A stretch of 15,886 nt of DNA. Source: an uncultured archaeon (GTDB lineage Archaea > Asgardarchaeota > Lokiarchaeia > Sigyniarchaeales > SOKP01). The stretch spans positions 1 through 15,886 of the forward strand of contig CAZALK010000033.1 of NCBI GenBank assembly GCA_964486045.1, read 5' to 3'. Each line of letters starts with the position of its first letter. The stretch's first letter is position 1. The translations under genes and the position numbers were made by a program. Below the pieces are notes generated by a model that worked only from the letters and a program-made list of their open reading frames with translations, did no database searches and was not told where the DNA came from. This document shows, piece by piece, positions 1,497 to 15,886 of the stretch.

Positions 1497-3428
1497 ATGG
1501 AAGAAAAAGTCGAAAATAAGGAAAATAACGCTGAATCCCTACCTTTAGGAAAAAAATACGTATATACATGGAGAAATAAATTGATTACTTCAGGAGCGGG
1601 ATCCATTGAAGATTTCATTGCGACTTATAAACATATAGCAGAAAAAATGAGACGCTGGAAAGAAGCAGGGATCATTCTTGATCCGGATATCGATGGTGGT
1701 ATTGGAGATGATTATTCTCAGTTTTGTACCCATGATGAAGGGATTGCTATTAAAGAGGGTTTTGAAGAAGAAATTATTGAAGAATATGAAGAAGATTTAA
1801 AAAGTGAAAGGTCAGCTCCTCCATCTCTCGAATTTCAGATTAACGAATATCTTTCATTAAAATTGTATGATAGGTTTATTAAAATCTATGTCAACGGAGA
1901 ATCTTTTAACCAGTGTCGTTATCTTCTCATAGTCGATCCCCTTAAGCTTGAAAATCAAGACGAGATCGATTCCATAGATGAGGCTGAGTCAATATATAAC
2001 AAAGATTTAGAAAGAAAAGTCACCCCTGAGGAATTAGGGATTACCAAAGAGCAGGAATTCTGGGCACATTGTTCTAATTTACAAGCATGGGCAGAAAACG
2101 ATTATGACACTCGACTGCTACATAGTAACCTATCGTTTCCTCTGCTTAGAAAACTAACAAAGATCGGTGATGCTAAGGCACTAAAGGTGTTCAAAGAAGA
2201 GATTGCCCAAAGATTTGTGAGTGGATATATTCCAGTTATGAAGTATCTCTTCACAGAAAAATATGTAGATTGTATGACTCCAGAAGAGTTTGAAGTAATT
2301 TTAAATGAATTAGATTATAATACTCTTGATCTAAATTTACTATTAGAAAATATTGGGGATTATAGAGATTCAAAATATGGAACCCTTTTTCTTTTGCGGA
2401 TAAGGGGGGAATTTTTGGATCACTTTACAAACAACAAGATGTATGTCGAAGCAGTTTTCCATCATTTGGATGCAAGTGAGTTTAGCCCAATTGTAGTTAC
2501 TCCTAATAGGCAGTATTTTATCAGAGGTTCAAATGATGGCAAACTCAAAGTGTTTGGGATATTTAACGCTGACTTGGTGCGAGTCTTCGGTGACCATAAA
2601 GGACAATGCGTATCTACTCTTGCAATTTCACGTGATGGCAGGTACGTTGCAAGTTCTTCGGATACTCTCGTGAATGTATGGGACTACGAAACAGGGATCT
2701 TATTACACTCTTTTGAAGGCCATGAAGATTATGTAAATGCTTTAACCTTTGATCCTGAAGGGGGATATCTAGTAAGTGGCTCGGGAGGTGACGATTGGAA
2801 TGAAAGTGCCATAAAAATCTGGGATCTGAATAAAGGAAAGTTAAAAAGAACTGTGAACTCTCATTGGAAATCTATTATTTCATTATCATTTTCACCGAAC
2901 GGGAAGTATCTAGTCAGTGGAGCTCGTGATAAAACAGTGAATGTATGGGACACAATAAATGGGAGACTCCTCACTACGTTGGCTGGACATAAAAATAGTG
3001 TAATTGATGTAGCAATTACAAATGAGAAAAAGGTAGTAAGTGCCTCGTACGATGATACGATTAAAGTCTGGGATGCTGATAGTGGGGAAGTACTCAGGGA
3101 AATGGAAGTTTATCAATCAAAAAATTCGGAGACAAGGTTTGAAATTGTAAGTTTTGTGTTAACTCCTGACCACGAATTTGTTATTGGCGGATTACAAGGC
3201 TCCCTCAAAGATGGGGGAAAATTATGTATTTGGAAGCTTTCAAATGGGAAGTGTATCCAAGCGTTGCCCATAAAGCAAGATTTCGCCGGAGCTTATGAAG
3301 AACTAAATCAAATAGCGATTTCTAGTGACGGCCTATTTGTCTTTTCAGCATCACGGGATAGGATGGTAAAAGTATGGATGGAGTTCATCGAATATATGGA
3401 CTTTCAAGAATTTATTCAAGACTCATAA
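1497..3428 (+). CDS. Multidomain protein: acidic N-terminal domain + Lokiarchaeia-type domain X + WD40 beta-propeller
   Basis: Domain X at about aa 112-266 (EFQINEYLSLKL...FWAHCSNLQAWAENDYDTRLLHSNLSFPLLRKL...VFKEEI). About seven WD40 repeats follow (GHEDYVNALTFDPEGGYLVSGS, SGARDKTVNVWD, GHKNSVIDVAIT..SASYDDTIKVWD). Confidence 0.92.
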   Translation: MEEKVENKENNAESLPLGKKYVYTWRNKLITSGAGSIEDFIATYKHIAEKMRRWKEAGIILDPDIDGGIGDDYSQFCTHDEGIAIKEGFEEEIIEEYEEDLKSERSAPPSLEFQINEYLSLKLYDRFIKIYVNGESFNQCRYLLIVDPLKLENQDEIDSIDEAESIYNKDLERKVTPEELGITKEQEFWAHCSNLQAWAENDYDTRLLHSNLSFPLLRKLTKIGDAKALKVFKEEIAQRFVSGYIPVMKYLFTEKYVDCMTPEEFEVILNELDYNTLDLNLLLENIGDYRDSKYGTLFLLRIRGEFLDHFTNNKMYVEAVFHHLDASEFSPIVVTPNRQYFIRGSNDGKLKVFGIFNADLVRVFGDHKGQCVSTLAISRDGRYVASSSDTLVNVWDYETGILLHSFEGHEDYVNALTFDPEGGYLVSGSGGDDWNESAIKIWDLNKGKLKRTVNSHWKSIISLSFSPNGKYLVSGARDKTVNVWDTINGRLLTTLAGHKNSVIDVAITNEKKVVSASYDDTIKVWDADSGEVLREMEVYQSKNSETRFEIVSFVLTPDHEFVIGGLQGSLKDGGKLCIWKLSNGKCIQALPIKQDFAGAYEELNQIAISSDGLFVFSASRDRMVKVWMEFIEYMDFQEFIQDS

Positions 3429-3566
3429 GACCTTTTCTTTCTTAATATTTGTAGTTTTCTGAATCAAATTTTGTTCGCTTTCATGACAAACTACGCACAT
3501 TTCCTGATATTGCATGAATTCCGTTTCATCAATTACTTTACTACACTTTGGGCAATAAATTTTCAA
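3423..3566 (-). CDS. Small CxxC...CxxC zinc-finger protein (47 aa), not in the ORF track
   Basis: Manual translation from TTG: MKIYCPKCSKVIDETEFMQYQEMCVVCHESEQNLIQKTTNIKKEKVL*. A (C)TGTGAT SD-like sequence and a minus-strand TTTTTC..TTTATAT motif (~3615-3632) lie upstream. Its 3' end overlaps that of the WD40 gene. Confidence 0.7.
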   Translation of the reverse strand: MKIYCPKCSKVIDETEFMQYQEMCVVCHESEQNLIQKTTNIKKEKVL

Positions 3567-3701
3567 AATATATCACAGGTAATTTTCTAAGTTTACGTCT
3601 TATTTTCACCAAACATATAAAAAAGAAAAAAAGTAGAATCTTGTTTAGTATATGTTAAAATTTTAAATAGGTAAAGCTATTTTTTCTTTTTATAGTATTA
3701 G

Positions 3702-4442
3702 TTGGAGAAACTTAAAAAAGGATTTTCTCACAATCTTAAAATAATATATTTTCCAAAAGAAAAGATGGCAAGATTACAATTTTTAAGTTTTACGACCAAT
3801 CAAGACGGGTTCGTAAGTTGCCCAGATTTTATTAAAGGATGGGAATCTACAGCATTCCTCTCTAAAATTGAGGAAAGCCCATTAGGAAAGATGTTCTTTC
3901 AACCTTCATGCAAGTATTGTAGACACATGAAGTATGATGAATGTTATTTTGAATCGGCAGAGATTCGTGAGGTGAGTGGTGAGGTTTCTCCTTTTTCACT
4001 GAACCCTTTTAGCAAGTGGCATAAATATAGATGTGATATTTGTGGTCAGTCCCTCTCTCAGACGTTTCTATTATTAAAAAAACGATACATTAAGAGGAAA
4101 GAAGGAATTGATATTCCGTTAATTTGTAGTAGCTGTTATAAGCATGTTATACAGCGTGGAAATATTGACAAAAAATTTGTTAATTCTATACTTTTATATG
4201 GCTTGACCTTGTTTTTACCGGTGTTCATGGTTACGTTAGTTACTATCCTTTACTTTCTATTACGTCTCTACGCTCAGCCTAATTCTATCACTTATGCTGT
4301 ACTTATAATAATTCTTGATTCAGCAATGGGATTTGTTATCTACAATTATCCAGTAAAAAGACTGCGGTTATTGGCTCATGGTAAAGAGATCCTTATGATG
4401 TCTCTCTCTAACCCTGCGGTAAGGGAGTTAATGTTGAAGTAG
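3702..4442 (+). CDS. Cys-rich (probable zinc-binding) membrane protein
   Basis: CKYC, CDIC and CSSC pairs followed by two hydrophobic helices (SILLYGLTLFLPVFMVTLVTILYFLL; ITYAVLIIILDSAMGFVIY). The true start may be ATG 3765. Confidence 0.8.
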   Translation: MEKLKKGFSHNLKIIYFPKEKMARLQFLSFTTNQDGFVSCPDFIKGWESTAFLSKIEESPLGKMFFQPSCKYCRHMKYDECYFESAEIREVSGEVSPFSLNPFSKWHKYRCDICGQSLSQTFLLLKKRYIKRKEGIDIPLICSSCYKHVIQRGNIDKKFVNSILLYGLTLFLPVFMVTLVTILYFLLRLYAQPNSITYAVLIIILDSAMGFVIYNYPVKRLRLLAHGKEILMMSLSNPAVRELMLK

Positions 4443-4532
4443 TTGTTATTTAAGACTAAGGTTAAATGTAAATCATTTTTACTTCTTTCTCCATTTTTTT
4501 CCGAAGTTTTATTATGGCTCTTAGAATTAAGT

Positions 4533-5411
4533 TTAAAATTTCTTGTAGATACGATTTCTTTTTCTATTTCTATTTTTAGACATATGATATAAAATTGAAG
4601 ATTTAAAATAATTCCAGTAATTCTTATTGATTTTATACAGTTCTCGTATACATTGTAAAAGACTTATATCTGATGGTTGGAATCTTAATCCTTTCTTGAG
4701 CGTTTCTATGGCTTCATCAATGTTTCCTTTCTCATGAAATAAATCACTTAGACCAACCCAGGTGCTTACAGAAAAAGGATCTGACTGGACTGCTTTCCAA
4801 TACATCCACATAGCTTGATTATCCTTTTTCTCTTGAAGGTAGAGGAGAGCAAGGTTAATAAAAGCATATCTTCTAACTGAACTATATCTTCCAAGTGAAG
4901 CTTTTCTATACATTTTCTTAGCATTATTAATTTGACATAGATTGTTGTAAATATCTCCAAGACTCAAATAATCATCACTTTCTAACTTGTACATCCCTGC
5001 AAGGGTATTATAATATTTCAACGCTCTATGGTAATCCATTTCAATTATGCAGACATCACAAAGCCTTTTTAATACAGTCTTATTTATTGGATTAATCTCG
5101 AGAGCATGCTCCAAAGCTTCGATTGCTTCCTCTCCTTGTGAATTTAATAAATACTCCTCAGCAATAACTTTCCATAGATCAGCATCTATGACATATTTAA
5201 ATAACTCAAGTTTCTCTGATTTCGAGAAATTGTCCAAATATCCTTCAGAAATCAAGAATTCTTGCACAGGACCATAAAAACTTTTGAACCGTTTCGTTAT
5301 TTCTTCCTTAAAAACAGTAATCGCTTGGGGATCTCCAACTTCTGAAAGACGGCGTATCAAGGGAAATGACAGATCGCTACTTAAAAGACGAGTATCATAG
5401 TTATTTTCCAC
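4533..5411 (-). CDS. TPR-containing C-terminal part of the interrupted gene
   Basis: TPR-like units (WKVIAEEYLLNSQGEEAIEALEHALEINP; WVGLSDLFHEKGNIDEAIETLKKGLRFQP). The ORF begins in the middle of domain X (VENNYDTRLLSSDLSFPL), so the GTG is unlikely to be a real start. Confidence 0.5.
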   Translation of the reverse strand: MENNYDTRLLSSDLSFPLIRRLSEVGDPQAITVFKEEITKRFKSFYGPVQEFLISEGYLDNFSKSEKLELFKYVIDADLWKVIAEEYLLNSQGEEAIEALEHALEINPINKTVLKRLCDVCIIEMDYHRALKYYNTLAGMYKLESDDYLSLGDIYNNLCQINNAKKMYRKASLGRYSSVRRYAFINLALLYLQEKKDNQAMWMYWKAVQSDPFSVSTWVGLSDLFHEKGNIDEAIETLKKGLRFQPSDISLLQCIRELYKINKNYWNYFKSSILYHMSKNRNRKRNRIYKKF

Positions 5412-5510
5412 CCATACTTGAAGATTTGAACAATGACCTTTGAATATTTCTTTAGGCTTTATTTCGAACTGATGAGAGTAGAAAGTTGATTCTTTTTCAT
5501 CACCATATCG

Positions 5511-6128
5511 CTAAATTACATGATCTAAGGTGTCTACAGTATTTATGTCTCCAAACGGAACATCTATTATTAAATGTTTGCAGATCATATACAGTTTCTT
5601 GGCAATATAGATCAGTGTCTCCCCTCTCCTCAATTTAACAACAATAAATTCGTTTATCCTAAATGAAGCTCTTCTTACTCCCGAATATAGAGATGGCATG
5701 GAAATAATTCCTCCAAAAAATATAATCACCGTTCCAGGTCCTTGCCCGAATCCTTCTATAGAGAATAAAAGAATATAAATATAAGCAGCTAACACTCCAA
5801 GCAGGATAACTGGACTATAAATTATCCACCATAGTAATGTCTTTTTCCTATTTTTTAGATCATATGAAAAAATGATGAGAAACACACAACATATACAGAG
5901 CAGAAAAGCGGTTATAACACCTAAGCTCATAATAAAAAGAAATTGGAATGCAAATGTATAACCATACAACAGTTCCAAGTATTCCAAGATATTTGGTTCC
6001 ACATCACCAATTCCTACTATCCAGAAGTCCAATTTCCCATATAAACTTCCTGTTGGGAAAAATAACCCTAATAATACGACCATAGCGCCAATAGCTGGAA
6101 AGATAAACTTGTATTTCAAAAAATTCAA
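5511..6128 (-). CDS. N-terminal membrane part of the interrupted gene
   Basis: About four hydrophobic segments, then the first half of domain X (SFRINEFIVVKL...IYIAKKLYMICKHLII), ending at the TAG. Confidence 0.5.
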   Translation of the reverse strand: MNFLKYKFIFPAIGAMVVLLGLFFPTGSLYGKLDFWIVGIGDVEPNILEYLELLYGYTFAFQFLFIMSLGVITAFLLCICCVFLIIFSYDLKNRKKTLLWWIIYSPVILLGVLAAYIYILLFSIEGFGQGPGTVIIFFGGIISMPSLYSGVRRASFRINEFIVVKLRRGETLIYIAKKLYMICKHLIIDVPFGDINTVDTLDHVI

Positions 6129-6130
6129 AA

Positions 6131-6385
6131 TTATGACTCCATTGAGGCAGTTGGGGAACTATCAACGAAGACAATTTCGGAGAAGATGCTTTTACCTGTT
6201 ATTGCATCTATTAGATCCTTGACATCTCTCTTCCCAATTGTTTTATTATAAAAATTATTCACTTCAATAAGCCCATTAAAGGGTGAGACAATCTGATTAT
6301 AATCAACTACTCCAATAATCCATTGAGCAGTCTGCATATCATCCTCTTGAAACCAAATTCTGCAAATTAAGTCATCTTCTAACAT
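6131..6385 (-). CDS. Hypothetical protein (84 aa)
   Basis: ATG lies ~25 nt downstream of a TTTTTTCTTTAAATA motif (6424-6410). Its stop is 2 nt before the next minus-strand gene, suggesting an operon. Confidence 0.7.
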   Translation of the reverse strand: MLEDDLICRIWFQEDDMQTAQWIIGVVDYNQIVSPFNGLIEVNNFYNKTIGKRDVKDLIDAITGKSIFSEIVFVDSSPTASMES

Positions 6386-6409
6386 AATACTGATTTATCA
6401 AATTATGAA

Positions 6410-6491
6410 TATTTAAAGAAAAAAGAAATTTAGTCTCAAAATCTTAATCTATACATCCCATCTAAATTTGATCACTCTTTTTCTTTATATG
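6410..6491. promoter_or_regulatory. Divergent archaeal promoters (TTTTTC + TATA box)
   Basis: Minus strand TTTTTTCTTTAAATA at 6424-6410 and plus strand TTTTTCTTTATATG at 6478-6491. Each lies ~23-25 nt before an ATG, consistent with leaderless transcripts. Confidence 0.6.
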
Positions 6492-6513
6492 GATAGAAAT
6501 ATTTTAATGTATC

Positions 6514-7230
6514 ATGGTTAACCATATAATACCTCATATTATAGTAGACAACAGAGAAGGAAAGTTAATGGAAGTTCTTGATAGAAAAAGTGATGTGATA
6601 ACCTATGAGTCTAAACAACTCGATATAGCAGATATTATTATTACTTCTGAAGTTGCAATAGAACGAAAGGAGGGATATGACTTCGTGACTTCAATTATGG
6701 ACAATCGACTATTTGAGCAGATAGTTAGATTGAAAGACACTTACAACACTCAGATACTTATCTTAGAAGGCTTAAATGATAAAGTATTTGAGAGAACTGG
6801 TATGAAAATTAGTTCTATATATGGGGCACTCTCCGTTGTATCCTACAAATTGGGAATGTCAGTAATACCTACTCGAAATATTGAAGATACTGCAATTGTT
6901 ATTGAGGGAATTGCCGTAAGAGAACAGGGAGGAGATGAAAATAATCTTCCTCTTGTCCGCAGATCACCTAAAACAATGGATAAGTCTGCAAGGAGAACTT
7001 ATATTATTGAAGGATTGGTTGATACCGGTCCTAAGAAAGCAAAGATGTTAATTGATACTTACAAGACTCCACATAAAGTCTTAAAGTCTATAAAGGATAC
7101 TGAAATAACGTTCACCCGCACTGGAAATCCTAAAGGTATTAAAGGCCCGCTTGAATATCTGACCGGATTTGGTTGGAAATATGTACAAAAGAACAAAAAA
7201 ATATTGTTTGGTAGTAAAAAAAATGGTTAG
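6514..7230 (+). CDS. ERCC4-domain structure-specific endonuclease (short XPF/Mus81/Hef-nuclease type) with helix-hairpin-helix
   Basis: IIVDNRE, LDIADIII and the ERKxxxD motif IERKEGYDFVTSIMDNRLFEQ, then LILEG and an HhH-like IEGLVDTGPKKAKML. No helicase domain. Confidence 0.9.
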   Translation: MVNHIIPHIIVDNREGKLMEVLDRKSDVITYESKQLDIADIIITSEVAIERKEGYDFVTSIMDNRLFEQIVRLKDTYNTQILILEGLNDKVFERTGMKISSIYGALSVVSYKLGMSVIPTRNIEDTAIVIEGIAVREQGGDENNLPLVRRSPKTMDKSARRTYIIEGLVDTGPKKAKMLIDTYKTPHKVLKSIKDTEITFTRTGNPKGIKGPLEYLTGFGWKYVQKNKKILFGSKKNG

Positions 7231-7284
7231 GTACTTGTTTTAGCAAAGTCTTTTTATTTAAAGTATTTAAAAAATTGAATTGTT

Positions 7285-7764
7285 ATGAAAGATCTAAAAA
7301 GAATTAAGGAAATATGTAGGTTGTTAGAAGAAGCTTGGTCTTTTGATCCCCACCAACGGTTAGGACAATTCCTACTTAATTATGTTTTTGGGAGTTTTGG
7401 GAAAGATAGCCACATCTATATGAAAGAAGATGAGGAGATTACAATAATTCTCCAAAATTTCGTTGAAAAATTTAGAGAATTTAATAATATTCTGAAACCT
7501 GAAGTGATTAAGAAAACTAGAGAAATATTGACTGAATTATCCAAGGCAACCCAAAAATTATCAAATAAGAAGGCTTGCTGTGTTTGCCTTCATGATCTTT
7601 CTGACCATATTGATGAGAAAGAGGGTTGGAGATGTCACATGTTAGGACCTGACGGATTTCAATGTGAGTGTTTCTTAAGAAAATCAGGATTTGATTCAAT
7701 AGAGGGATACGAGTTAAATAAACGGATTTCGCAAGTGAAAGAAGAGCTAGAACTTGGTGAATAA
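7285..7764 (+). CDS. Hypothetical two-domain protein: DUF1040/YihD-like N-terminus + Cys/His-rich C-terminus
   Basis: KRIKEICRLLEEAWSFDPHQRLGQFL resembles the RI..L...W...PD.RLGQL pattern (recalled). The C-terminus reads CCVCLHDLSDH...WRCH...QCECFL. Confidence 0.75.
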   Translation: MKDLKRIKEICRLLEEAWSFDPHQRLGQFLLNYVFGSFGKDSHIYMKEDEEITIILQNFVEKFREFNNILKPEVIKKTREILTELSKATQKLSNKKACCVCLHDLSDHIDEKEGWRCHMLGPDGFQCECFLRKSGFDSIEGYELNKRISQVKEELELGE

Positions 7765-7771
7765 TTATAAC

Positions 7772-7903
7772 TTAAGTTTCCATTGCCATGGGTCGAATAA
7801 TCGCAAGGCTGTTTTTATCAATAACCACACTCTCATATTCCTTACAAATTACTAATCTTTCAATATCTGTCTTTGCAATTACTTTATTGCCATAATTCTT
7901 CAC
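7772..7903 (-). CDS. Possible small protein (43 aa)
   Basis: GTG start: MKNYGNKVIAKTDIERLVICKEYESVVIDKNSLAIIRPMAMET*. Two minus-strand TTTTTTCTTTA motifs lie upstream (7943-7974). Confidence 0.4.
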   Translation of the reverse strand: MKNYGNKVIAKTDIERLVICKEYESVVIDKNSLAIIRPMAMET

Positions 7904-8086
7904 TACAATGAAACTGTTCTCAGATTAGAATAATTGCTCTTTATCTAAAGAAAAAAGAAAATTTAAAGAAAAAACAAACAAAATCGTGATAGTATTAAGA
8001 CCTATAAAACAAGATGAGAAAATAATCAAGAGACATAAAATTACGACACTATTAGGATTTATAACAGATGATTGTATGCGTATCAC

Positions 8087-8174
8087 AATGGGGTAGTTTA
8101 TAGGATCACTAGGATACATATTTATATAGGCATAAATACCTCCTTTTGTTTGATCCTATAAACTAATTCCCATT
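8087..8174. repeat. Inverted repeat / long hairpin
   Basis: Perfect 15-bp inverted repeat tagtttataggatca (8094-8108) / tgatcctataaacta (8151-8165), extended by aatggg/cccatt. The loop contains an inner tatttat/ataaata stem, and a T-rich tract follows. Confidence 0.75.
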
Positions 8175-8301
8175 CTTTTTTTATTTCTCTTATTTTATTA
8201 TTATTTGATTTTTCAAGTAGTTTAAATAGGAGAACTAAGATTTAATTTTGCCTATATAAGATGTAATAAAACACGATTATAAGAATGGAGGTATATAAAT
8301 A

Positions 8302-8589
8302 TTGATATTTTCTTTAAAAATTATTATAGATGAAGATAAAAACGTCTCCTTAGTAATAAGTAAGACTCCCGAATTAGCCAAACTTTTAAAGAGTACAATA
8401 AACGTCTTAGAGATTAGCTTTCCTCATGTACGGATCACATCCCGTAATGATCATTATCAAATTGCAGGGATTGAAGGTACAGGTGCGTTTTCCACTATTA
8501 AATCAATAATCGAGGAGGTGTTTATCAGGTATGTTGATGATGTTGATGACTCCGAACCATCTGAATTTGAAAAGTTTTTTATGATTTAA
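8302..8589 (+). CDS. Hypothetical protein (95 aa)
   Basis: GGAGGT SD at ~8287-8292 before the TTG start; plausible alpha/beta composition with an acidic tail. Confidence 0.75.
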   Translation: MIFSLKIIIDEDKNVSLVISKTPELAKLLKSTINVLEISFPHVRITSRNDHYQIAGIEGTGAFSTIKSIIEEVFIRYVDDVDDSEPSEFEKFFMI

Positions 8590-8672
8590 CACTCAAAGAT
8601 TTATAATTTTGTCCAGTCTATGTTATAATAAGGTAAGAATGAAATCAGAATACTAATCTGAGGTAATAATCG

Positions 8673-9557
8673 TTGATCTCACTTACAACTCTATTAAAAC
8701 GGATACCTGATAGATCTACTCTTTCAGAGTACCTTCCCCCCCTTAAATTTCCGGTATTAAGCCACCCATTATTAAACCCTTATCCAGATTGGATAAACCA
8801 ATTTAAAGCGTGGGGAATATTTGGTACTTTTTCTGATTATGTTATTCGAAAGATACTGTTAAATCTATTCCCTACCAAAGTTAAAAACTTAAAGACTATT
8901 GCAGAAGAGGGTTATTATACTCTGGTTGCCACCATTGGAGCAAAAGATAATTCATTTCTTGATACTGTTTTACCCGATATCCCCGAAGAAGATCTATTGA
9001 GATATGCTGAGGAAATGGAACGATCTTTAGATAATTTCTATGATCGAGAAGTATATTGGAAATCAGAGCTCGATGAAATTTATAGAATGTCCTGTTTAGA
9101 TAAGATAGAAAGAAACAATGAGTTGGTGATGCCCCAATTTTCAGAGAGGCAAATCAAAGAATGTGTTCCTTTTTTCGAGCATTTAGAACAGTGGCTTGAA
9201 TATAGGTTTAAAGACTCCAATAACTTTTTCCTCAATCCAATCTTAGGACATACGAGTACCATAGCTGCCGATGCCGACTTGTTAATAGACTCAGCTCTTT
9301 ATGAAATAAAGACTGTTAAATACCCCACTTCGTACATAGAAAATGAGTATCATCAATTATTTGGGTATGTAAGTCTCTTCGAAAACCAGAAAGAAAATAA
9401 CCTCAGCTCATTTCGAGAATGGGAGGATCTGGACACTATTGGATATATTTTTCCATTACATCTGCAATTAATTACCATGGATATTTCTTCATGGAAAAAA
9501 AAAGAAAGATCGGAGTTTTTGTCTAGGTTATTATATTATGCTAAGATTTATGCATAG
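8673..9557 (+). CDS. PD-(D/E)xK superfamily nuclease (RecB-like QxxxY motif)
   Basis: LNPILG...ADADLLID (motif II), YEIKT (motif III) and HQLFGY. GAGGT SD upstream of the TTG. No Cas4-type four-cysteine cluster. Confidence 0.75.
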   Translation: MISLTTLLKRIPDRSTLSEYLPPLKFPVLSHPLLNPYPDWINQFKAWGIFGTFSDYVIRKILLNLFPTKVKNLKTIAEEGYYTLVATIGAKDNSFLDTVLPDIPEEDLLRYAEEMERSLDNFYDREVYWKSELDEIYRMSCLDKIERNNELVMPQFSERQIKECVPFFEHLEQWLEYRFKDSNNFFLNPILGHTSTIAADADLLIDSALYEIKTVKYPTSYIENEYHQLFGYVSLFENQKENNLSSFREWEDLDTIGYIFPLHLQLITMDISSWKKKERSEFLSRLLYYAKIYA

Positions 9558-9663
9558 TCAGCAATTTTCGCAATAAATAGTCTCGACTTTTTATTTTTTG
9601 ATTTAATCCCATTTCGTGAAATTCTCTAAATGCATCTACAATCTGATTAACATCCTTACTCAA
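9541..9663 (-). CDS. Possible small protein (40 aa)
   Basis: TTG start: MSKDVNQIVDAFREFHEMGLNQKIKSRDYLLRKLLTMHKS*. It fills an otherwise empty gap but has no clear SD. Confidence 0.3.
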   Translation of the reverse strand: MSKDVNQIVDAFREFHEMGLNQKIKSRDYLLRKLLTMHKS

Positions 9664-9820
9664 AATAACAAATAATAAGGTTATTTTCTCATTTCATAAA
9701 TACTCTTAAATAATTATGTAAAAAATCTTTCTTTCATTCTTCTTTAGTCACTTTTTTCTTTATATACTCCTGATTTCATGATGAAATAATTATCAATTAA
9801 ATAGAATGGAGTGATAGTAT

Positions 9821-9889
9821 ATGGCAATTTTAACCTTAATAGCTTTTATCAGTTATATATTTAGTCCACCCGATGAAGATGCTGAGTAG
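9821..9889 (+). CDS. Possible 22-aa hydrophobic micropeptide
   Basis: MAILTLIAFISYIFSPPDEDAE*, with a GGAGTGA SD at 9808-9814 and a TTTTTTCTTTATATA promoter motif at 9752-9766. Confidence 0.4.
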   Translation: MAILTLIAFISYIFSPPDEDAE

Positions 9890-9983
9890 TGTGAGTCAAT
9901 TCGACCGGGTGAATATTAGAAATAATTGAATATTAAAAATAAAAAAGAAATTTAAACCCACAATTTTACTATACTTTCAGGTT

Positions 9984-10250
9984 TCACAACAAATCTTCTC
10001 CAATCTTATATTTTAAGATATTTTCTACCCGCATCATTAGAAAATCATCATTCATCATATATTTGTTAAACAATACATTATAAACTTGCAGTGTTCTCAC
10101 ATAGAAATTCAAGAGTCCATGAGTTCTTTGATTATTGCCTAAAGGCATTGGTTTTGCTTCCAGTTCCTTTATTATACACTCGAATTTAGTATCTAGATCT
10201 TTGATTAACTCTAATTGTTGTGGTTCTAAAGCACTTACCCTACTTCTCAT
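9984..10250 (-). CDS. Hypothetical helical protein (88 aa)
   Basis: Open frame with ATG preceded by a GAGATGAT SD-like sequence; no recognisable motif. Confidence 0.65.
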   Translation of the reverse strand: MRSRVSALEPQQLELIKDLDTKFECIIKELEAKPMPLGNNQRTHGLLNFYVRTLQVYNVLFNKYMMNDDFLMMRVENILKYKIGEDLL

Positions 10251-10405
10251 CTAATTATCATCTCGTTATAAATTAATTTGTTTTTTTTCTTGTCTTTCAT
10301 ATTATATGACACTCTTATATCTAATTCCAGTTATTCACAATATTAAAATTTTGGTAGGTTACTAATCTTATATTTTTATTATCTTTCTAAATCTCATCTT
10401 TTTTT

Positions 10406-10606
10406 CTAGATGATCTTCTTACTACATTGGGTGCACGATGGTCCAATTACCCATTTGTCATCAGTAGAGATGGGATTAAATTCCTCTTTTATTCTTTCAG
10501 GTATGGAATTCATTCGAACATACTCAGAAAAGCACCGTAAACAGAAGATGTGCCCCATATCGATGTTTCTGTAGCCCACTATTTCCTTTCTTTCTTTTTC
10601 CGTCAT
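10406..10606 (-). CDS. Small zinc-finger-like protein (66 aa)
   Basis: CLRC ... CTQC pairs. Confidence 0.7.
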   Translation of the reverse strand: MTEKERKEIVGYRNIDMGHIFCLRCFSEYVRMNSIPERIKEEFNPISTDDKWVIGPSCTQCSKKII

Positions 10607-10628
10607 TTTCTTAATTATTTGGTCTTAA

Positions 10629-10763
10629 TCAGGTTAACATTTGCGAAAGAACACAGTTATCACATTTAATTTCATCAAATTCTTCCCAATCGTTTCTAAA
10701 CACTTCAATTATCCCCCTTCCACCACGCTTAGAACAGGTTCGGGGTTTTCGAATAGTTAACAT
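10629..10763 (-). CDS. Small, possibly degenerate zinc-finger protein (44 aa; shorter than track ORF 10629..10865)
   Basis: MLTIRKPRTCSKRGGRGIIEV...KCDNC. CSKRGGRG matches CxxCxGxG with the second Cys as Arg (CGT, one base from TGT). The promoter motif TTTTTTCTTTATATA at 10816-10802 favours the ATG at 10763. Confidence 0.5.
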   Translation of the reverse strand: MLTIRKPRTCSKRGGRGIIEVFRNDWEEFDEIKCDNCVLSQMLT

Positions 10764-10837
10764 TTCTCTAAAATGTATCATACTAGACAAAAACACATTC
10801 TTATATAAAGAAAAAATCTCAAAAGGAATTGTAAAAA

Positions 10838-10951
10838 TTAAACGGTTTTGGGCATAAGCCCCCATTTAATGGCTTCCAACATAATATCATAAAAATCGAT
10901 ATCATTTTCACTCTTCTCTGTTTTTCTATTCTGCTTTTTTTTATCCTTCAT
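10838..10951 (-). CDS. Small protein (37 aa), not in the ORF track
   Basis: MKDKKKQNRKTEKSENDIDFYDIMLEAIKWGLMPKTV*, with an AGGTGA SD just upstream. Confidence 0.55.
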   Translation of the reverse strand: MKDKKKQNRKTEKSENDIDFYDIMLEAIKWGLMPKTV

Positions 10952-11137
10952 ATCATATTTCACCTTTAATCTACTTTCAGTTATCCACCTATTTAAAATT
11001 TAGTATGAGTTGAATTTTAAGTTTGGATAAATTAAAATAAAATTTTACAGCGAATTTTTCTTTAAAAGTGTCAGATACAATAATAAAATAATTTATTATG
11101 ACTTGTAAAAAAATTGAGACTCTGAGGTGTGTCATAA

Positions 11138-12202
11138 ATGAAAAAAATTATTGATAGAAAAATAATATTTCTGGGAATGTTAAGTGTTATAGTGTTTTCA
11201 GGGATTTTCTCACCCACAGCAAAAGCCCAAGAATGGACTTACATTGGTGTTGATTCTCAAAAAATCAAAAACTTTTCTGTTTACCCTTCTGAGTGGTATA
11301 TATACGATCAGGGAGTTCCTGATGACTATAGGGCCGTTGAGATTTCGCATGGTAATATTTCTACCATCGGCTTAGATCGTGGTGTTTATGTCTGGGCTAA
11401 TATGTATTCTAAGAATAACACATCTGGAGAAACACAATTTATTGCTCAAGTAAATTGGGGTTATTGGAATGATTCTACATGTGTGTATAAAGGTGGGGTT
11501 ATACCTGTTGAAGACGATGGAAGAATCTCAGAACGGATTTTTGGAAATGTATCTCTTTTTTACCAAGATGCATTTAGCTATAGTAATTTCGAGCAAAATT
11601 ATACTGATTTTAATCTATTATCAATTACTTATTGGAATGAGACCTATAACGACTATTATGCTAGAGTCAATTTTTCAGATAACGGCATTTTGCTTAGTTT
11701 TGAAGCGTTCCCTGTAGGAAACTTTGCTTTAATTTCCCAACCTTCTCGATTACCACCTATGTTCAGTTTCACTACTAATGACGGATTCTTGGATATAAAC
11801 TCCACTAACATAAAGCTCAAGATTAATACGACCGATGCTGATAATAATAATGACGAAATAACAGATACTGATTATTTATACCGCACATTCATAAACTCGG
11901 AATGGACTGATTGGCTTACAATCCCCCCACTAATCGATTATGACTTAGGTTCTGTCTCTTCAGGTGAATATAATATAACATTGGAAGTGAAAAATATGTA
12001 TGGTACCACACAGGAGCAGATCACCGTGCATTACACTGAAAATATCCCCCCTATTGAAACGAAAGATACTATTATCCCTAGCGAATCGATCTTCGGTTAT
12101 TCTGCCATAATAATTATCGTTGTATTGTTCTTTAGTATTTCGGTTAAACTCTTGAGAAGCTTCTTCACCTCCAAATATTGCCATTATTATCCCCTATTTT
12201 AA
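11138..12202 (+). CDS. Secreted cell-surface glycoprotein with a C-terminal membrane anchor (Loki-CTERM-like)
   Basis: Signal peptide (MKKIIDRK-hydrophobic-TAKA/Q), at least ten N-x-S/T sequons and an Ig/PKD-like beta segment (GEYNITLEVKNMYG). The tail reads IFGYS-hydrophobic helix-KLLR. GAGGTG SD upstream. Confidence 0.8.
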   Translation: MKKIIDRKIIFLGMLSVIVFSGIFSPTAKAQEWTYIGVDSQKIKNFSVYPSEWYIYDQGVPDDYRAVEISHGNISTIGLDRGVYVWANMYSKNNTSGETQFIAQVNWGYWNDSTCVYKGGVIPVEDDGRISERIFGNVSLFYQDAFSYSNFEQNYTDFNLLSITYWNETYNDYYARVNFSDNGILLSFEAFPVGNFALISQPSRLPPMFSFTTNDGFLDINSTNIKLKINTTDADNNNDEITDTDYLYRTFINSEWTDWLTIPPLIDYDLGSVSSGEYNITLEVKNMYGTTQEQITVHYTENIPPIETKDTIIPSESIFGYSAIIIIVVLFFSISVKLLRSFFTSKYCHYYPLF

Positions 12203-12392
12203 GTAAGATATTTTAGTATAATACCTTTATTATCACTCATGTTTTAAGCCATATCCCTCCACAGTTTTTTTAGTGGTGATAGTCACTTTTAAGGTTTTTA
12301 TTATTACCTTATCTAAAGTTTCATGCTCTGAATATTTAAATAAAAAAATGTAAATATAGAGTCTAATTAAAACTGTTTTTCTTTATATAGGT

Positions 12393-12623
12393 TTGTTGAG
12401 ATTGGTTTTAATAAACATAACTGATACAGATTTGGCAAGTGTGAGTATAAGCAAAGATGCTAAAATAATTGTATGTAGGGACTGCTATGAGGGAATCATA
12501 GTCTTTGAAAATAGTAGGGGTGACGTTCTTAATCTAAAATTTGTTGATAAGTTCCTAGACAACCACCATAAAGTGGATGTAATGATTTACGAAGATTTTG
12601 TAAACAATGTCGAGAGCCCCTAA
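12393..12623 (+). CDS. Small hypothetical protein with CxxC and HH (likely start TTG 12432)
   Basis: IIVCRDCYEG...DNHH. The promoter motif TTTTTCTTTATATA at 12376-12389 is too close to 12393, favouring the in-frame TTG at 12432. Confidence 0.55.
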   Translation: MLRLVLINITDTDLASVSISKDAKIIVCRDCYEGIIVFENSRGDVLNLKFVDKFLDNHHKVDVMIYEDFVNNVESP

Positions 12624-13081
12624 AGTATTTTACTCAGTAATTTCTTAAGGACTCCTTGTTGCTCTCTCAGAACTTCATTACCAATCAATCCTGCACAATC
12701 TTCTGAAAAAGCATATATAAAATCTTCAATCTGTTGGTTTTTGTTCTGGAAAGGCTCATTAGTGGCTGTCTTTTGCTTTACTATCCTATTTATAACATCG
12801 TACATTACTTCTATAGTCCTCTCAACCAGCTTGACTCTCAATTTAGCTCCAGCGTCAGTCAATTTAAACTCAGTCCGATCATCGCCAGCATGATCACCTT
12901 TCTTAGTCTTTTTCTCAATAGATCCTTCTTGGACTCGTTTGTTTAATTTATTACGAATTGTTTCTGGAGCAATTACGTCAAATTTTTTCCGAATAGCTCC
13001 TGATGTGATATACTTTTTCGGAGATAAAAATAATAGTAACTCAAGGGTATCCAGAGATCCAAATAATATCTTTTCACTCAT
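12620..13081 (-). CDS. Winged helix-turn-helix transcriptional regulator (HxlR/MarR-like)
   Basis: LELLLFL...TSGAIRKKF..IAPETIRNKLNKRVQEGSIEK...RTEFKLTDAG follows the HTH + wing + (Y/F)xLTxxG pattern. Confidence 0.8.
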   Translation of the reverse strand: MSEKILFGSLDTLELLLFLSPKKYITSGAIRKKFDVIAPETIRNKLNKRVQEGSIEKKTKKGDHAGDDRTEFKLTDAGAKLRVKLVERTIEVMYDVINRIVKQKTATNEPFQNKNQQIEDFIYAFSEDCAGLIGNEVLREQQGVLKKLLSKIL

Positions 13082-13116
13082 TTTAAGGCAATATTGTGAA
13101 GTTCGTTATATACTTC

Positions 13117-13173
13117 CGTCTAGATCGTAACAAATGGTTATCTAGAACCTATCATATTTCGATCTAGATCAAA
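13117..13173. promoter_or_regulatory. Array of three TCTAGA-centred palindromes, putative operator
   Basis: TCTAGA starts at 13119, 13141 and 13163 (22-bp period), in the intergenic region between the wHTH gene and the divergent genes. Confidence 0.65.
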
Positions 13174-13274
13174 CTATACTATAAACTTTAAATACTTGAG
13201 TAACTAATTACCTCTTAGATATATATAAATTTGTATATCAAGGAAAGACAATTATATAAAACGAGGGTTTAAAA

Positions 13275-13661
13275 ATTAGTAACTTAGAAAATTACAGGGA
13301 GGTTTTAAGGTTTCTTGAAAAAGAGCCAATTTTAAAGGGAAAGTTTGATAGGTTAAGAAAGTCTTTAGAAGATTTATCGCATGATTTTTCTAAAAATAGG
13401 TTTGAAGCACAGTGTGATAAGTATCTATATTTTTTGGATTTTTTAGGTGAGACTGTTACGCATTATGATGAGATTTTGAAATTTCTTGAAGAAGAGCCGA
13501 TTCTAAAGGTGGAGTTTGATAGGTTAAGAGATTCCTTGGAGTCTTCCTCAGATAATTTTTCAGAACAAAATTTTGAAAGATATTATGAAAATTATCAAGA
13601 ATTACTGAGCTTTTTATGTGAGATAATAGCACTTCCGAAAAATAAGAAGTTTTTAGTTTAA
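13275..13661 (+). CDS. Hypothetical helical protein made of two 57-aa repeats; probable ATT start (extends track ORF 13434..13661)
   Basis: The frame is open upstream of 13434 and encodes NYREVLRFLEKEPILKGKFDRLRKSLE..., a copy of HYDEILKFLEEEPILKVEFDRLRDSLE... lying 171 nt downstream. A GAGGGT SD precedes ATT 13275, and an in-frame TAA lies just upstream. Confidence 0.7.
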   Translation: MSNLENYREVLRFLEKEPILKGKFDRLRKSLEDLSHDFSKNRFEAQCDKYLYFLDFLGETVTHYDEILKFLEEEPILKVEFDRLRDSLESSSDNFSEQNFERYYENYQELLSFLCEIIALPKNKKFLV

Positions 13662-13698
13662 GAATTCTAGAATATTAAATAGGGAATTATTTCAAATT

Positions 13699-14997
13699 AT
13701 GCGGCTTACAAAATCTGCCTTATTAAACACATTTAAGAAAAAAGTACAAAGATTAAGAAAAAAAGTCTCAAAATTTAGTTATGGGATTAACCTCTTCTCT
13801 GGAAAGCCTTTAATATTAGAGAGCTTTCTTGATGAAGCAATCACATTTCAGCCAATAGGGAAGGGAGATATTGATGTTCCATTATCTATTCAGAAGGCTC
13901 CTAAAGTTTTAAGGGAGGCAATAGAATATTTATTTGACATATCGATTCAAGAAGATGAGCCTCAACAAGACGGAAACTTCTATGGAATTTGTTATCATGA
14001 TAAGGAATTAAAATCCAGAATTAGTTTTTCTTTATACGGGTTATCAGAAGATTCAGAGCGAAACTGTTATGTTATAGAGTTACCTGAACCTAACTTTGAT
14101 TTTAAAGCTAAAAAGTCAATATATAATCAGCTTTTTCAAGGTCGGTACCCCAATTCAAAATATACATCCCCAGTATATAGTTTCGCTAGTGATGAATATA
14201 TAGATTCCCTAGCATATAGTTTCAATTCCGGTTATATAGAAACCTATAATTTCAGAGAAGATAATGATTACAGTACCATTACCGATGATTCGGAGAGTTT
14301 TGATTTTACGATATTAAAAGAATTTGTTATAAATAAACACATAACATTAAAGTTGATTCATAATGAGGTAATGGGAAGCTATACAAAGATTTTTGTGAAC
14401 AATATCCCATTTTTACAGTGTGCTTATATTTTACTTAAAGATCCTCAAAATCATGAGTCCCAATCAGAAATAAATTCTATTGATGAAGCTGCTGAAAAAC
14501 TCGATAGTCGTTTGGAGCTCCCGCTTGAACACCCAACCTTAATTTCTCCTGAGACTTTATTTTGGGGGCATTCTTCAAACCTACAAGGATGGGCTGAATT
14601 AGAATATGACACTCGTATTCTTCATTCCAACCTAGCTTTTCCACTATTAAGAAAGTTGGTTAAGGTCGGAGACCTTCAAGCCAAGAGAGTTTTTAGCGAA
14701 GAAATTGCAAAGCGTATCTTAAGTCAGTATCCCCCCGTACTTATTTTTTTAATAAACGAAGGGTATTTAGATTACCTAAACGATTCTGAGTTTGAATTCG
14801 TACTAAAAGAGTTAATCATACAGATTAATATACCACACTCCAGGCTTATTGATGCTAATTTTGCTAAGAGTTTGCTAAATTTGTCTCGGAAATATTTGGA
14901 AGAAGGTTCAGACCGCATCCAATTGCTTTTAAAGGTATATGCCGAACTTAATAAGTTTCTTGTGACAAACGACAATATTAATAATAAGTTTGAATGA
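13699..14997 (+). CDS. Hypothetical protein: unknown N-terminal region + Lokiarchaeia-type domain X
   Basis: EFVINKHITLKL...TKIFVNNIPFLQCAYILL...INSIDEAAE...FWGHSSNLQGWAELEYDTRILHSNLAFPLLRKLVKVGD...VFSEEIAKR...EGYLDYL. Confidence 0.88.
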   Translation: MRLTKSALLNTFKKKVQRLRKKVSKFSYGINLFSGKPLILESFLDEAITFQPIGKGDIDVPLSIQKAPKVLREAIEYLFDISIQEDEPQQDGNFYGICYHDKELKSRISFSLYGLSEDSERNCYVIELPEPNFDFKAKKSIYNQLFQGRYPNSKYTSPVYSFASDEYIDSLAYSFNSGYIETYNFREDNDYSTITDDSESFDFTILKEFVINKHITLKLIHNEVMGSYTKIFVNNIPFLQCAYILLKDPQNHESQSEINSIDEAAEKLDSRLELPLEHPTLISPETLFWGHSSNLQGWAELEYDTRILHSNLAFPLLRKLVKVGDLQAKRVFSEEIAKRILSQYPPVLIFLINEGYLDYLNDSEFEFVLKELIIQINIPHSRLIDANFAKSLLNLSRKYLEEGSDRIQLLLKVYAELNKFLVTNDNINNKFE

Positions 14998-15234
14998 AGA
15001 ATCTTTCCCAGAGTATAATTTTAAATTAATGATTACGGAATTTAAAATTGAGAATTTAAATAAGTAATTTTTATTGATATAAGTTTGATCTGATGATTGA
15101 AGAATTGTTGAATTAGAAAATTCCTTGTCCCATTTTCATTATATTTCCATTAACCATCTTTATCTATATCCCATAATTAACTTTTTAAGTCAGCTCGTAA
15201 TAATAGACTTAAGACAAAAGTGGTGAGGGCTTTA

Positions 15235-15886
15235 ATGCCTGATAGACAAAAATCAGAACAAGAGCGGATAAATCAACTTATTGGGGAGATTTCACGCCAT
15301 CGCTATCTCTATTATAATGAACAACCAGAAATCTCAGACGCAAAATATGACTCCCTTGAAGATGAGCTTCGAGAAACCGATCCTGAGAATCCTTTACTAT
15401 TTAAAATTGGTATAGATTCCTCAGAGCTATTCACTAAAAGGGCCCATATCATTCCAATGATGTCACAAGATAAGGTTACTCAACCTCAGGAATTTCTTAA
15501 GTGGGCCAAAAAACGCAATTATAAGACCTTTCTCGTTCAATTTAAGCTGGATGGGGTTAGCATCGAATTACAATATGAGAACGGAATTTTTCAGTATGCT
15601 TTAACTCGGGGTGATGGAAAGATCGGGGATGATGTTTCTGCCAACGTTACTCGGATGGATGGGTATATTTCTAAACTCAAGAGCAATTTTATAGGAGCAA
15701 TTCGCGGGGAGGTGTTACTATTTCATGAAATTTTTAACAAAAAATATAGTGATAAACAGAATTGCAGAAATGCGGCTTCAGGTCTTGTCAGGAGAAAAGA
15801 TGGGATCGGCAGTGGTGATTTAAACCTCATATTTTATGATGCAATCAGCACTTCTGAGGATGTCATCTTCCAAAACGAAATTCAAA
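15235..15886 (+). CDS. ligA: NAD-dependent DNA ligase, 5' part (runs off the window; absent from the ORF track)
   Basis: Manual translation: MPDRQKSEQERINQLIGEISRHRYLYYNEQPEISDAKYDSL...HIIPMMSQDK...FKLDGVSIELQYENG...ALTRGDGKIGDDVSAN...IRGEV...NCRNAASG. This has the domain Ia YY..ISD..YD motif and the KxDG adenylation motif. GGTGA SD at 15222-15226. Confidence 0.95.
   Translation, partial: MPDRQKSEQERINQLIGEISRHRYLYYNEQPEISDAKYDSLEDELRETDPENPLLFKIGIDSSELFTKRAHIIPMMSQDKVTQPQEFLKWAKKRNYKTFLVQFKLDGVSIELQYENGIFQYALTRGDGKIGDDVSANVTRMDGYISKLKSNFIGAIRGEVLLFHEIFNKKYSDKQNCRNAASGLVRRKDGIGSGDLNLIFYDAISTSEDVIFQNEIQ

Follow-up and report, generated by a model that had tools for sequence, protein, structure and literature searches.

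The window analysed here is an entire contig (C33, 15.9 kb, G+C content 30-34%) from the genome of an uncultured Lokiarchaeial archaeon (5.18 Mb in 45 contigs, 99% complete, with an estimated contamination of 7.8%). Metagenome-assembled genomes (MAGs) with relatives of the window's proteins are labelled Promethearchaeota, Promethearchaeia or Lokiarchaeota. The subject of this study is a domain of approximately 155 residues, which we name X and which is encoded three times in the window: copy 1 at 1830-2303 on the + strand (residues 112-269 of open reading frame (ORF) 1497-3428), copy 2 at 5214-5666 on the - strand, and copy 3 at 14317-14805 on the + strand (residues 207-369 of ORF 13699-14997). 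When a profile built from the three copies was searched against the genome, it returned them with E-values of 1.4e-86 (profile positions 2-159), 8.8e-79 and 1.0e-80 (profile positions 1-159), respectively. These values are far beyond chance, and the three stretches, which share 36-51% pairwise identity over approximately 155 residues, are true copies of one domain, as had been proposed from the sequence by a model that performed no database searches (hereafter, the original prediction). That prediction also described the flanks as acidic-X-WD40, transmembrane (TM)-X-TPR and unknown-X-helical. These layouts hold, but the gene around copy 2 is not one open gene, since a single in-frame TAG lies within the profile match.

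Gene 1 (1497-3428, +) is intact and encodes 643 residues, comprising an acidic N-terminal region (1497-1829), X and a WD40 propeller of the seven-bladed type (approximately 2490-3383; PF00400, E 1.4e-42, residues 332-629). Full-length orthologues with 64-70% identity are present in three other assemblies (P0014, L040 and L041), and gene 1 is conserved between species. A sample of 70 genomes from the window's own family yielded no full-length orthologue. At the loci of the full-length orthologues in two other MAGs, none of the window's other genes is present; because the neighbours are not conserved, the three window genes with X do not constitute a conserved system.

Gene 3 (13699-14997, +; 432 residues) consists of a 206-residue N-terminal domain (13699-14316), X and a 63-residue helical tail. 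It has no match in Pfam, NCBIfam or PADLOC, the flanks of X included. Ten relatives (P0153, P0047, P0154, P0155, P0157 and five more) carry an X that is 61-70% identical, and six of them share the layout of approximately 170-250 residues, X and a tail of approximately 60 residues. Judged by its sequence, gene 3 is intact and belongs to a small subfamily that has an N-terminal domain of its own. Elsewhere in the genome this domain occurs only at 96685-98061 of contig C8 (45% identity) and at 467-1810 of contig C43. The latter belongs to a second copy of gene 3, with positions 3-1896 of C43 matching window positions 13183-15081 at 92% nucleotide identity. In this copy, the N-terminal 206 residues are 99.5% identical while X is clearly more diverged (87%, assuming that P0152 is the C43 product), and the copy may be either a recombination mosaic or a co-assembled strain variant.

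Gene 2 (4533-6128, -) is broken. Read through the TAG, its frame would encode 531 residues, with a hydrophobic N-terminal region (approximately 5679-6128) of about four hydrophobic segments, recognised from the sequence and not with a TM predictor, followed by X and a TPR region (approximately 4662-5183; TPR_1, PF00515, E 1.8e-15). The TAG (5513-5511) replaces a conserved glutamate, the last E of an S-I-D-E-A-A-E helix, and splits the gene into ORFs 5511-6128 and 4533-5411. The TAG base is confirmed by a public contig of sequencing run X1, which is probably from the source sample. By contrast, a contig from sister sample X2 of the same study, approximately 98% identical to the window, has a C at 5513 of the + strand and thus a GAG glutamate codon. 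Glutamate is likewise present in P0150, an uninterrupted orthologue of the same architecture (44% identity over 509 residues), and in a truncated duplicate on contig C3 (233409-234080, -; 81% nucleotide identity with window 5511-6116). The duplicate spans the hydrophobic region and the first third of X, keeps the GAG, then diverges and ends nine codons further on. Together, these three sequences indicate that the gene was lost recently and in one strain: a G-to-T change (GAG to TAG) at a conserved glutamate codon has inactivated gene 2. That the TAG is a stop follows from the lack of PylB and PylS above cut-off in this 99%-complete genome (best scores 28 versus 348 bits and 25.5 versus 178 bits, respectively), which together with the sister-strain GAG rules out pyrrolysine read-through.

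Position 5511-5513 (-) is therefore a strain-level polymorphism, with TAG in the window and run X1 and GAG in sample X2. A second variable stretch lies in the TPR region at 4683-4924, for which run X1 yielded two contig variants of similar depth (about 270-297), one identical to the window and the other with 10 differences in 132-137 bases, a sign that alleles co-exist or that there is a close paralogue. The truncated C3 duplicate also accounts for a loose-ended contig in run X1.

The motif blocks that the original prediction saw in the three copies hold across 287 distinct X domains, over which we counted conservation and whose overall identity is about 50%. Near invariance is seen at L107 (100%), Y93 (99.7%), W88, A118, C30, S83 and R129 (99% each), D52, N84 and S50 (98% each), H81, E125 and Q86 (97% each) and N6 (96%). 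C82 is replaced by serine in 11% of the domains. In at least 90% of 140 aligned sequences, Q29 directly precedes C30. Such polar conservation would be compatible with a precise binding surface as well as with a catalytic or metal site. At C30 and H81 the few exceptions have bulky side chains, hydrophobic or aromatic (F, Y, V and I), so that we lean towards packing positions for these two.

AlphaFold2 models of copy 1 made with 37 and with 140 aligned sequences agree with each other (pLDDT 83.4 and 83.9, pTM 0.72 and 0.71) and consist of a four-stranded beta-meander (residues 1-27), a conserved stretch of low confidence (31-70) with a short helix at S-I-D-E-A, and six helices (74-158). The deeper alignment brought no gain in confidence for residues 31-70. 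In the model, S50-x-D52-E53, with which helix 50-56 begins, resembles a helix-capping box, which would make part of the polar conservation structural. The last 58 or so residues (profile positions 100-158) are a helical repeat unit.

None of the resources searched contains X. With 37 X domains from the genome as queries, Pfam gave no family at E<0.004, and no match at E<=10 was common to more than two of the 37. No NCBIfam or PADLOC family covers the domain, a profile search of PDB sequences returned nothing at E<=10, and Foldseek searches with the models against PDB (two models) and BFVD returned nothing at E<=0.001. A VIA-align search of 48,161 chains reached a best Z of 4.3, for the helical half only (residues 73-159), with the beta-meander half barely probed. 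Residues 74-158 weakly resemble the solenoids of HOPS, Vac8, CRM1 and AP-3 (Z 2.8-4.3; also ARM, HEAT and TPR), with scores too low to tell kinship from a shared helical arrangement. Matches in the ESM Atlas are solely to Promethearchaeota clusters without names. Asgard leucine-rich repeat (LRR) proteins are mentioned in the available text of the literature consulted as lacking an assigned function, and X is described in none of it. The domain is uncatalogued, and a match to a characterised family was found in none of Pfam, NCBIfam, PADLOC, PDB and BFVD.

Could X be a small enzyme or metal-binding module, with Cys30, His81 and Asp52 or Ser83/Asn84 at its active centre? The attached LRR, TPR, WD40 or GTPase would then aim X at substrates, in the way that LRRs direct the NEL ligase domain of IpaH/SspH effectors and the TIR domain of LRR-TIR proteins. 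The retention of C30, H81, D52, S83, N84, Q86 and R129 at an overall identity of only about 50%, the constant Q29 before C30 and the existence of stand-alone X proteins all speak for this. On the other hand, in the PDB searches X resembles no solved enzyme in sequence or fold, C82 tolerates serine, and the exceptions at C30 and H81 resemble those of buried packing positions. In the models, moreover, His81 would sit in the middle of a helix and Cys30 at the edge of a low-confidence loop, unlike known Cys-His folds, and the C-terminal third consists of a recurring solenoid unit, something atypical for a catalytic core. The likeness to LRR-NEL (IpaH/SspH/SlrP) and LRR-TIR proteins consists in a variable LRR joined to a conserved module with an invariant cysteine or other polar residues; X itself has no similarity to NEL or TIR, and NCBIfam matches to XopAC, XopL and SlrP are confined to the LRR of a neighbouring gene (296-1273). 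We consider a catalytic or metal-binding role unlikely, though well worth keeping in mind.

The family is large and narrowly distributed. Full-length copies in the genome number 37, and there are about ten fragments besides; they are spread over 20 contigs and partly clustered, with five copies within 20 kb on contig C8. A library of 1.84 billion proteins contains 2,658 X clusters (50% identity) at E<=1e-3 and 1,642 at E<=1e-30. Of 301 genomes sampled across the phylum, those with X comprised 62 of the 68 from the Lokiarchaeial family to which the window belongs, two of seven from a neighbouring family of the same order and one of 21 from one other family; the other 27 families searched yielded none. 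Among species-representative genomes, a scan gave more than 536 loci, almost all with the label Promethearchaeota or Promethearchaeia. As found so far, X is thus almost restricted to one family of Lokiarchaeia. One X-bearing contig (locus L119) is filed under Patescibacteria group bacterium; this is probably a mis-binned archaeal contig, because it also encodes a relative of window ORF 7285-7764 (49% identity). The tree of X paralogues is star-like with long terminal branches (median 0.7), showing that the paralogues are old duplicates. The family includes copies that differ between close strains.

The partners of X are diverse, comprising LRR, TPR, WD40, Ras/Arf-like GTPase, Rad51-like, Zn ribbon and TM segments, and X also occurs alone or duplicated. 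Among 31 paralogues in the genome, LRRs accompany X in 15, TPRs in two, and WD40 and Ras domains in one each; among 94 library representatives, 32 carry LRRs, 16 TPRs and five Ras domains. Precomputed annotations add Arf/Roc-type GTPases, a Rad51-like domain and Zn ribbons. In 168 of 245 library proteins (about 70%) and 27 of the 37 genomic copies, X starts within 25 residues of the N-terminus, and most genomic copies begin at residue 1-6 without a signal peptide. Other arrangements exist: 23 of 25 GTPase fusions checked are GTPase(1-185)-X(190-346), in some LRR proteins X comes last, nine proteins have two copies, and proteins of 187-230 residues are X alone. X is therefore a terminal, mobile module and not a central hub. 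Given that X is internal in all three window genes, the window displays three of the rarer architectures. The claim that a conserved domain without a known function has been shuffled among unrelated partners in an Asgard genome is upheld, its architectures being many and not few and fixed: X is a real, autonomous and mobile cytoplasmic module.

One simple explanation for such a module would be a purely structural one, in which X caps or spaces solenoid repeats and stabilises their ends without a specific partner. The C-terminal half of X is a solenoid unit which, in P0015, P0022, P0030 and P0005, recurs another four to seven times after X and so is present up to 7-8 times before the LRRs; even in these proteins, the 58-residue unit matches no Pfam repeat family. 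In addition, X usually adjoins an LRR or TPR, and its structural matches are generic alpha-solenoids. Against this, X also occurs beside GTPases and beta-propellers, on either side of LRRs and alone, and about 15 polar residues are 96-100% conserved across old paralogues, far beyond what a cap would need. We regard the cap or spacer as quite improbable. A dedicated LRR N-terminal cap is ruled out, X being found with WD40, TPR and GTPase domains, alone, and C-terminal to LRRs.

A constant domain paired with variable LRR, WD40 or TPR repeats, in a large, paralogue-rich family with copies that differ between close strains, also recalls the NLR/STAND innate-immune receptors, and the original prediction drew this parallel with X as the conserved hub. 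It correctly noted that X has no P-loop, the X alignment containing no Walker A motif. No NACHT or NB-ARC match was obtained in the three window proteins, the 31 paralogues or the 94 library proteins, so that X, unlike the NLR/STAND core, comes without an NTPase; it is moreover mostly N-terminal and not central, and no effector domain is attached. The window contains no defence genes, with PADLOC matches only on WD40, TPR and other non-X regions. Without an NTPase, a hub position, defence neighbours or conserved synteny, neither the NLR/STAND parallel nor the broader proposal of an innate-immunity-like system has support, and we consider it most improbable that X is the signalling hub of such receptors.

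We tentatively favour, at somewhat short of an even chance, the idea that X is a constant, non-catalytic docking or assembly handle that follows a logic like that of the F-box. As modelled, the handle would consist of the beta-meander (1-27), a conserved linker with the S-I-D-E helix cap (31-70) and the alpha-solenoid (74-158), and it would tether differing working parts to one common partner, to a cell structure or to each other. Those parts would be the ligand-binding LRR, TPR and WD40 repeats, the Ras/Arf-like GTP switches and the membrane anchors. The near-invariant polar face G-H-C-S-N-L-Q-x-W-x-E-N-x-Y-D-T-R, together with C30, D52, E125 and R129, would form the shared contact surface, while specificity would come from the variable partner domain, as in F-box or BTB substrate receptors. 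Besides the autonomy and mobility of X, two observations argue for docking. The partners are mostly protein-binding repeats (LRRs and TPRs in the 32 and 16 library proteins and LRRs in the 15 paralogues given above), and the motif is 97-100% conserved among long-branched paralogues, indicating one common constraint, as expected for a shared partner. From these we infer the docking role and the lack of catalysis.

Several points weigh against this proposal. C30, H81, D52, S83 and N84 are, by type, residues that an enzyme or metal site would keep. Ubiquitin-like genes are not enriched near X in the genome (one of five within 2 kb, near chance). The Pfam search with the 37 domains, described above, gave no family at all at E<0.004, and there is no F-box, BTB or death fold among the structural matches. 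Finally, the F-box comparison is an analogy only.

The analogy can nevertheless be made fairly precise. The F-box motif has approximately 50 residues in three helices, and F-box proteins bind the Skp1-type adaptor of a cullin ligase. Like the F-box in FBXL (F-box plus LRR), FBXW (F-box plus WD40) and FBXO (other) proteins, X is small, constant and usually N-terminal, and it belongs to a large, paralogue-rich family with interchangeable LRR, WD40 or other binding domains. It differs in being three times larger and in having a beta-meander, in also being fused to GTPases and TM segments and in its ability to be C-terminal. No sequence or fold relation was detected: there is no F-box among the Pfam matches at E<=10 for the 37 domains or among the best 50 VIA-align rows, which leaves a distant relation possible. 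A Skp1- or cullin-like partner of X is not known, homologues of Skp1 and cullin not having been searched for. The other comparison suggested by the structural matches, with ARM/HEAT/TPR alpha-solenoids, has in its favour the weak superposition of residues 74-158 and the tandem 58-residue unit, and differs in that this unit belongs to no Pfam repeat family.

The remaining genes of the window show how X genes are embedded in the genome. An LRR gene without X (296-1273, +; LRR_8, E 1.1e-19) adjoins gene 1, as predicted. It has 29 relatives in a genome-wide BLAST search, 15 of them with X, related through the shared LRR, and its C-terminal part of approximately 145 residues (approximately 180-325) has no Pfam or NCBIfam match. 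Further along the + strand are a short ERCC4 (XPF/Hef-type) nuclease without the helicase part (6514-7230), a 294-residue protein with a weak PD-(D/E)XK-like PADLOC match (8673-9557, E 2.5e-5), a predicted type-I surface protein (11138-12202) with a signal-like N-terminus, a C-terminal hydrophobic anchor and 11 N-x-S/T sequons, and, at the contig end, the start of a bacterial-type NAD-dependent DNA ligase (15220-15885, LigA-type, fragment). The surface protein has only two genomic paralogues (C8 85427-86467, 92%, and C2 7810-8850, 45%), both within four genes of X genes. Longer segments recur as well: window 10636-12141 corresponds to C8 84983-86364 at 93-97% identity and window 13176-13681 to C8 94902-95389 at 84%. 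A 266-bp stretch (12146-12411) is found 100% identical and inverted at C19 89821-90086, abutting the start of another X gene, and could be a small mobile or recombination element. The window is thus a mosaic of segments that are duplicated elsewhere in the genome beside other X genes.

Some of these other X genes have conspicuous neighbours. Five follow giant ORFs of 1,323-9,470 residues in the same direction, at a distance of 103-142 bp (loci L031-L036: C7 85-29937, C9 108-11227, C10 186483-197972, C8 78049-84958 and C3 72541-77733), and four of the five are X-LRR genes. The giant proteins have no Pfam match; related ones have trunks that are 75-80% identical and unrelated C-terminal ends. 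Zhang et al. in 2012 reportedly described polymorphic toxin/immunity cassettes with repeat-type immunity proteins (Imm-LRR class). By analogy, X proteins might be antidotes or partners for the toxic tips of giant polymorphic surface proteins, with the distant copies as orphan immunity genes. The five X genes placed directly 3' of giant genes with variable ends are consistent with this, as is the duplication of a window segment (10636-12141) beside such a locus on C8.

The comparison does not extend to the three window genes or to most of the family. None of the three adjoins a giant gene, a tblastn search found no giant-protein fragment in the window, and 32 of the 37 genomic copies are not next to giant genes. 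In other MAGs, only one of 61 X genes with enough upstream DNA (among 80 loci, in a sample that favours consensus-like X) follows a frame of at least 800 residues. The giant-linked genes do not form a clade in the paralogue tree. GTPase-X, X-WD40 and TM-X-TPR proteins are not immunity-like, and an X-WD40 orthologue persists in other species at 64-70% identity. Immunity would account for the variable LRR and not for the constant X, and we know of no immunity family with a constant extra domain of this kind. The pairing of X genes with giant genes is real but concerns a minority and explains the LRR better than X; as an account of the whole family, we rate immunity as rather improbable. In terms of the favoured docking handle, a subset of the X-LRR genes would have come to serve as the immediate downstream neighbours of giant proteins whose C-terminal tips are exchangeable.

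Asgard proteins with LRR, TPR, WD40 and small-GTPase domains are treated as eukaryote-like and without an assigned function in the available text of two reports (10.64898/2026.10.28.762692; 10.1101/2020.10.19.343400). In one family, a large share of such repeat and GTPase proteins carry X, which merits a profile model so that these proteins are no longer annotated by their repeats alone. A bolder possibility, which we think unlikely but of some consequence, is that X is either the handle of an Asgard-specific hub system with one common partner or a new Cys/His catalytic fold. The partner of such a hub might be a ubiquitin-like ligase scaffold or a cytoskeletal or membrane-trafficking element, shared by dozens of receptors and GTP switches; if true, the hub would be a prokaryotic, independently invented counterpart of the F-box/cullin or BTB adaptor networks. 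The role of X, once found, would give context to some 40 genes per genome and to thousands of database entries, and it would tell whether archaea evolved adaptor networks in which one handle serves many receptors.

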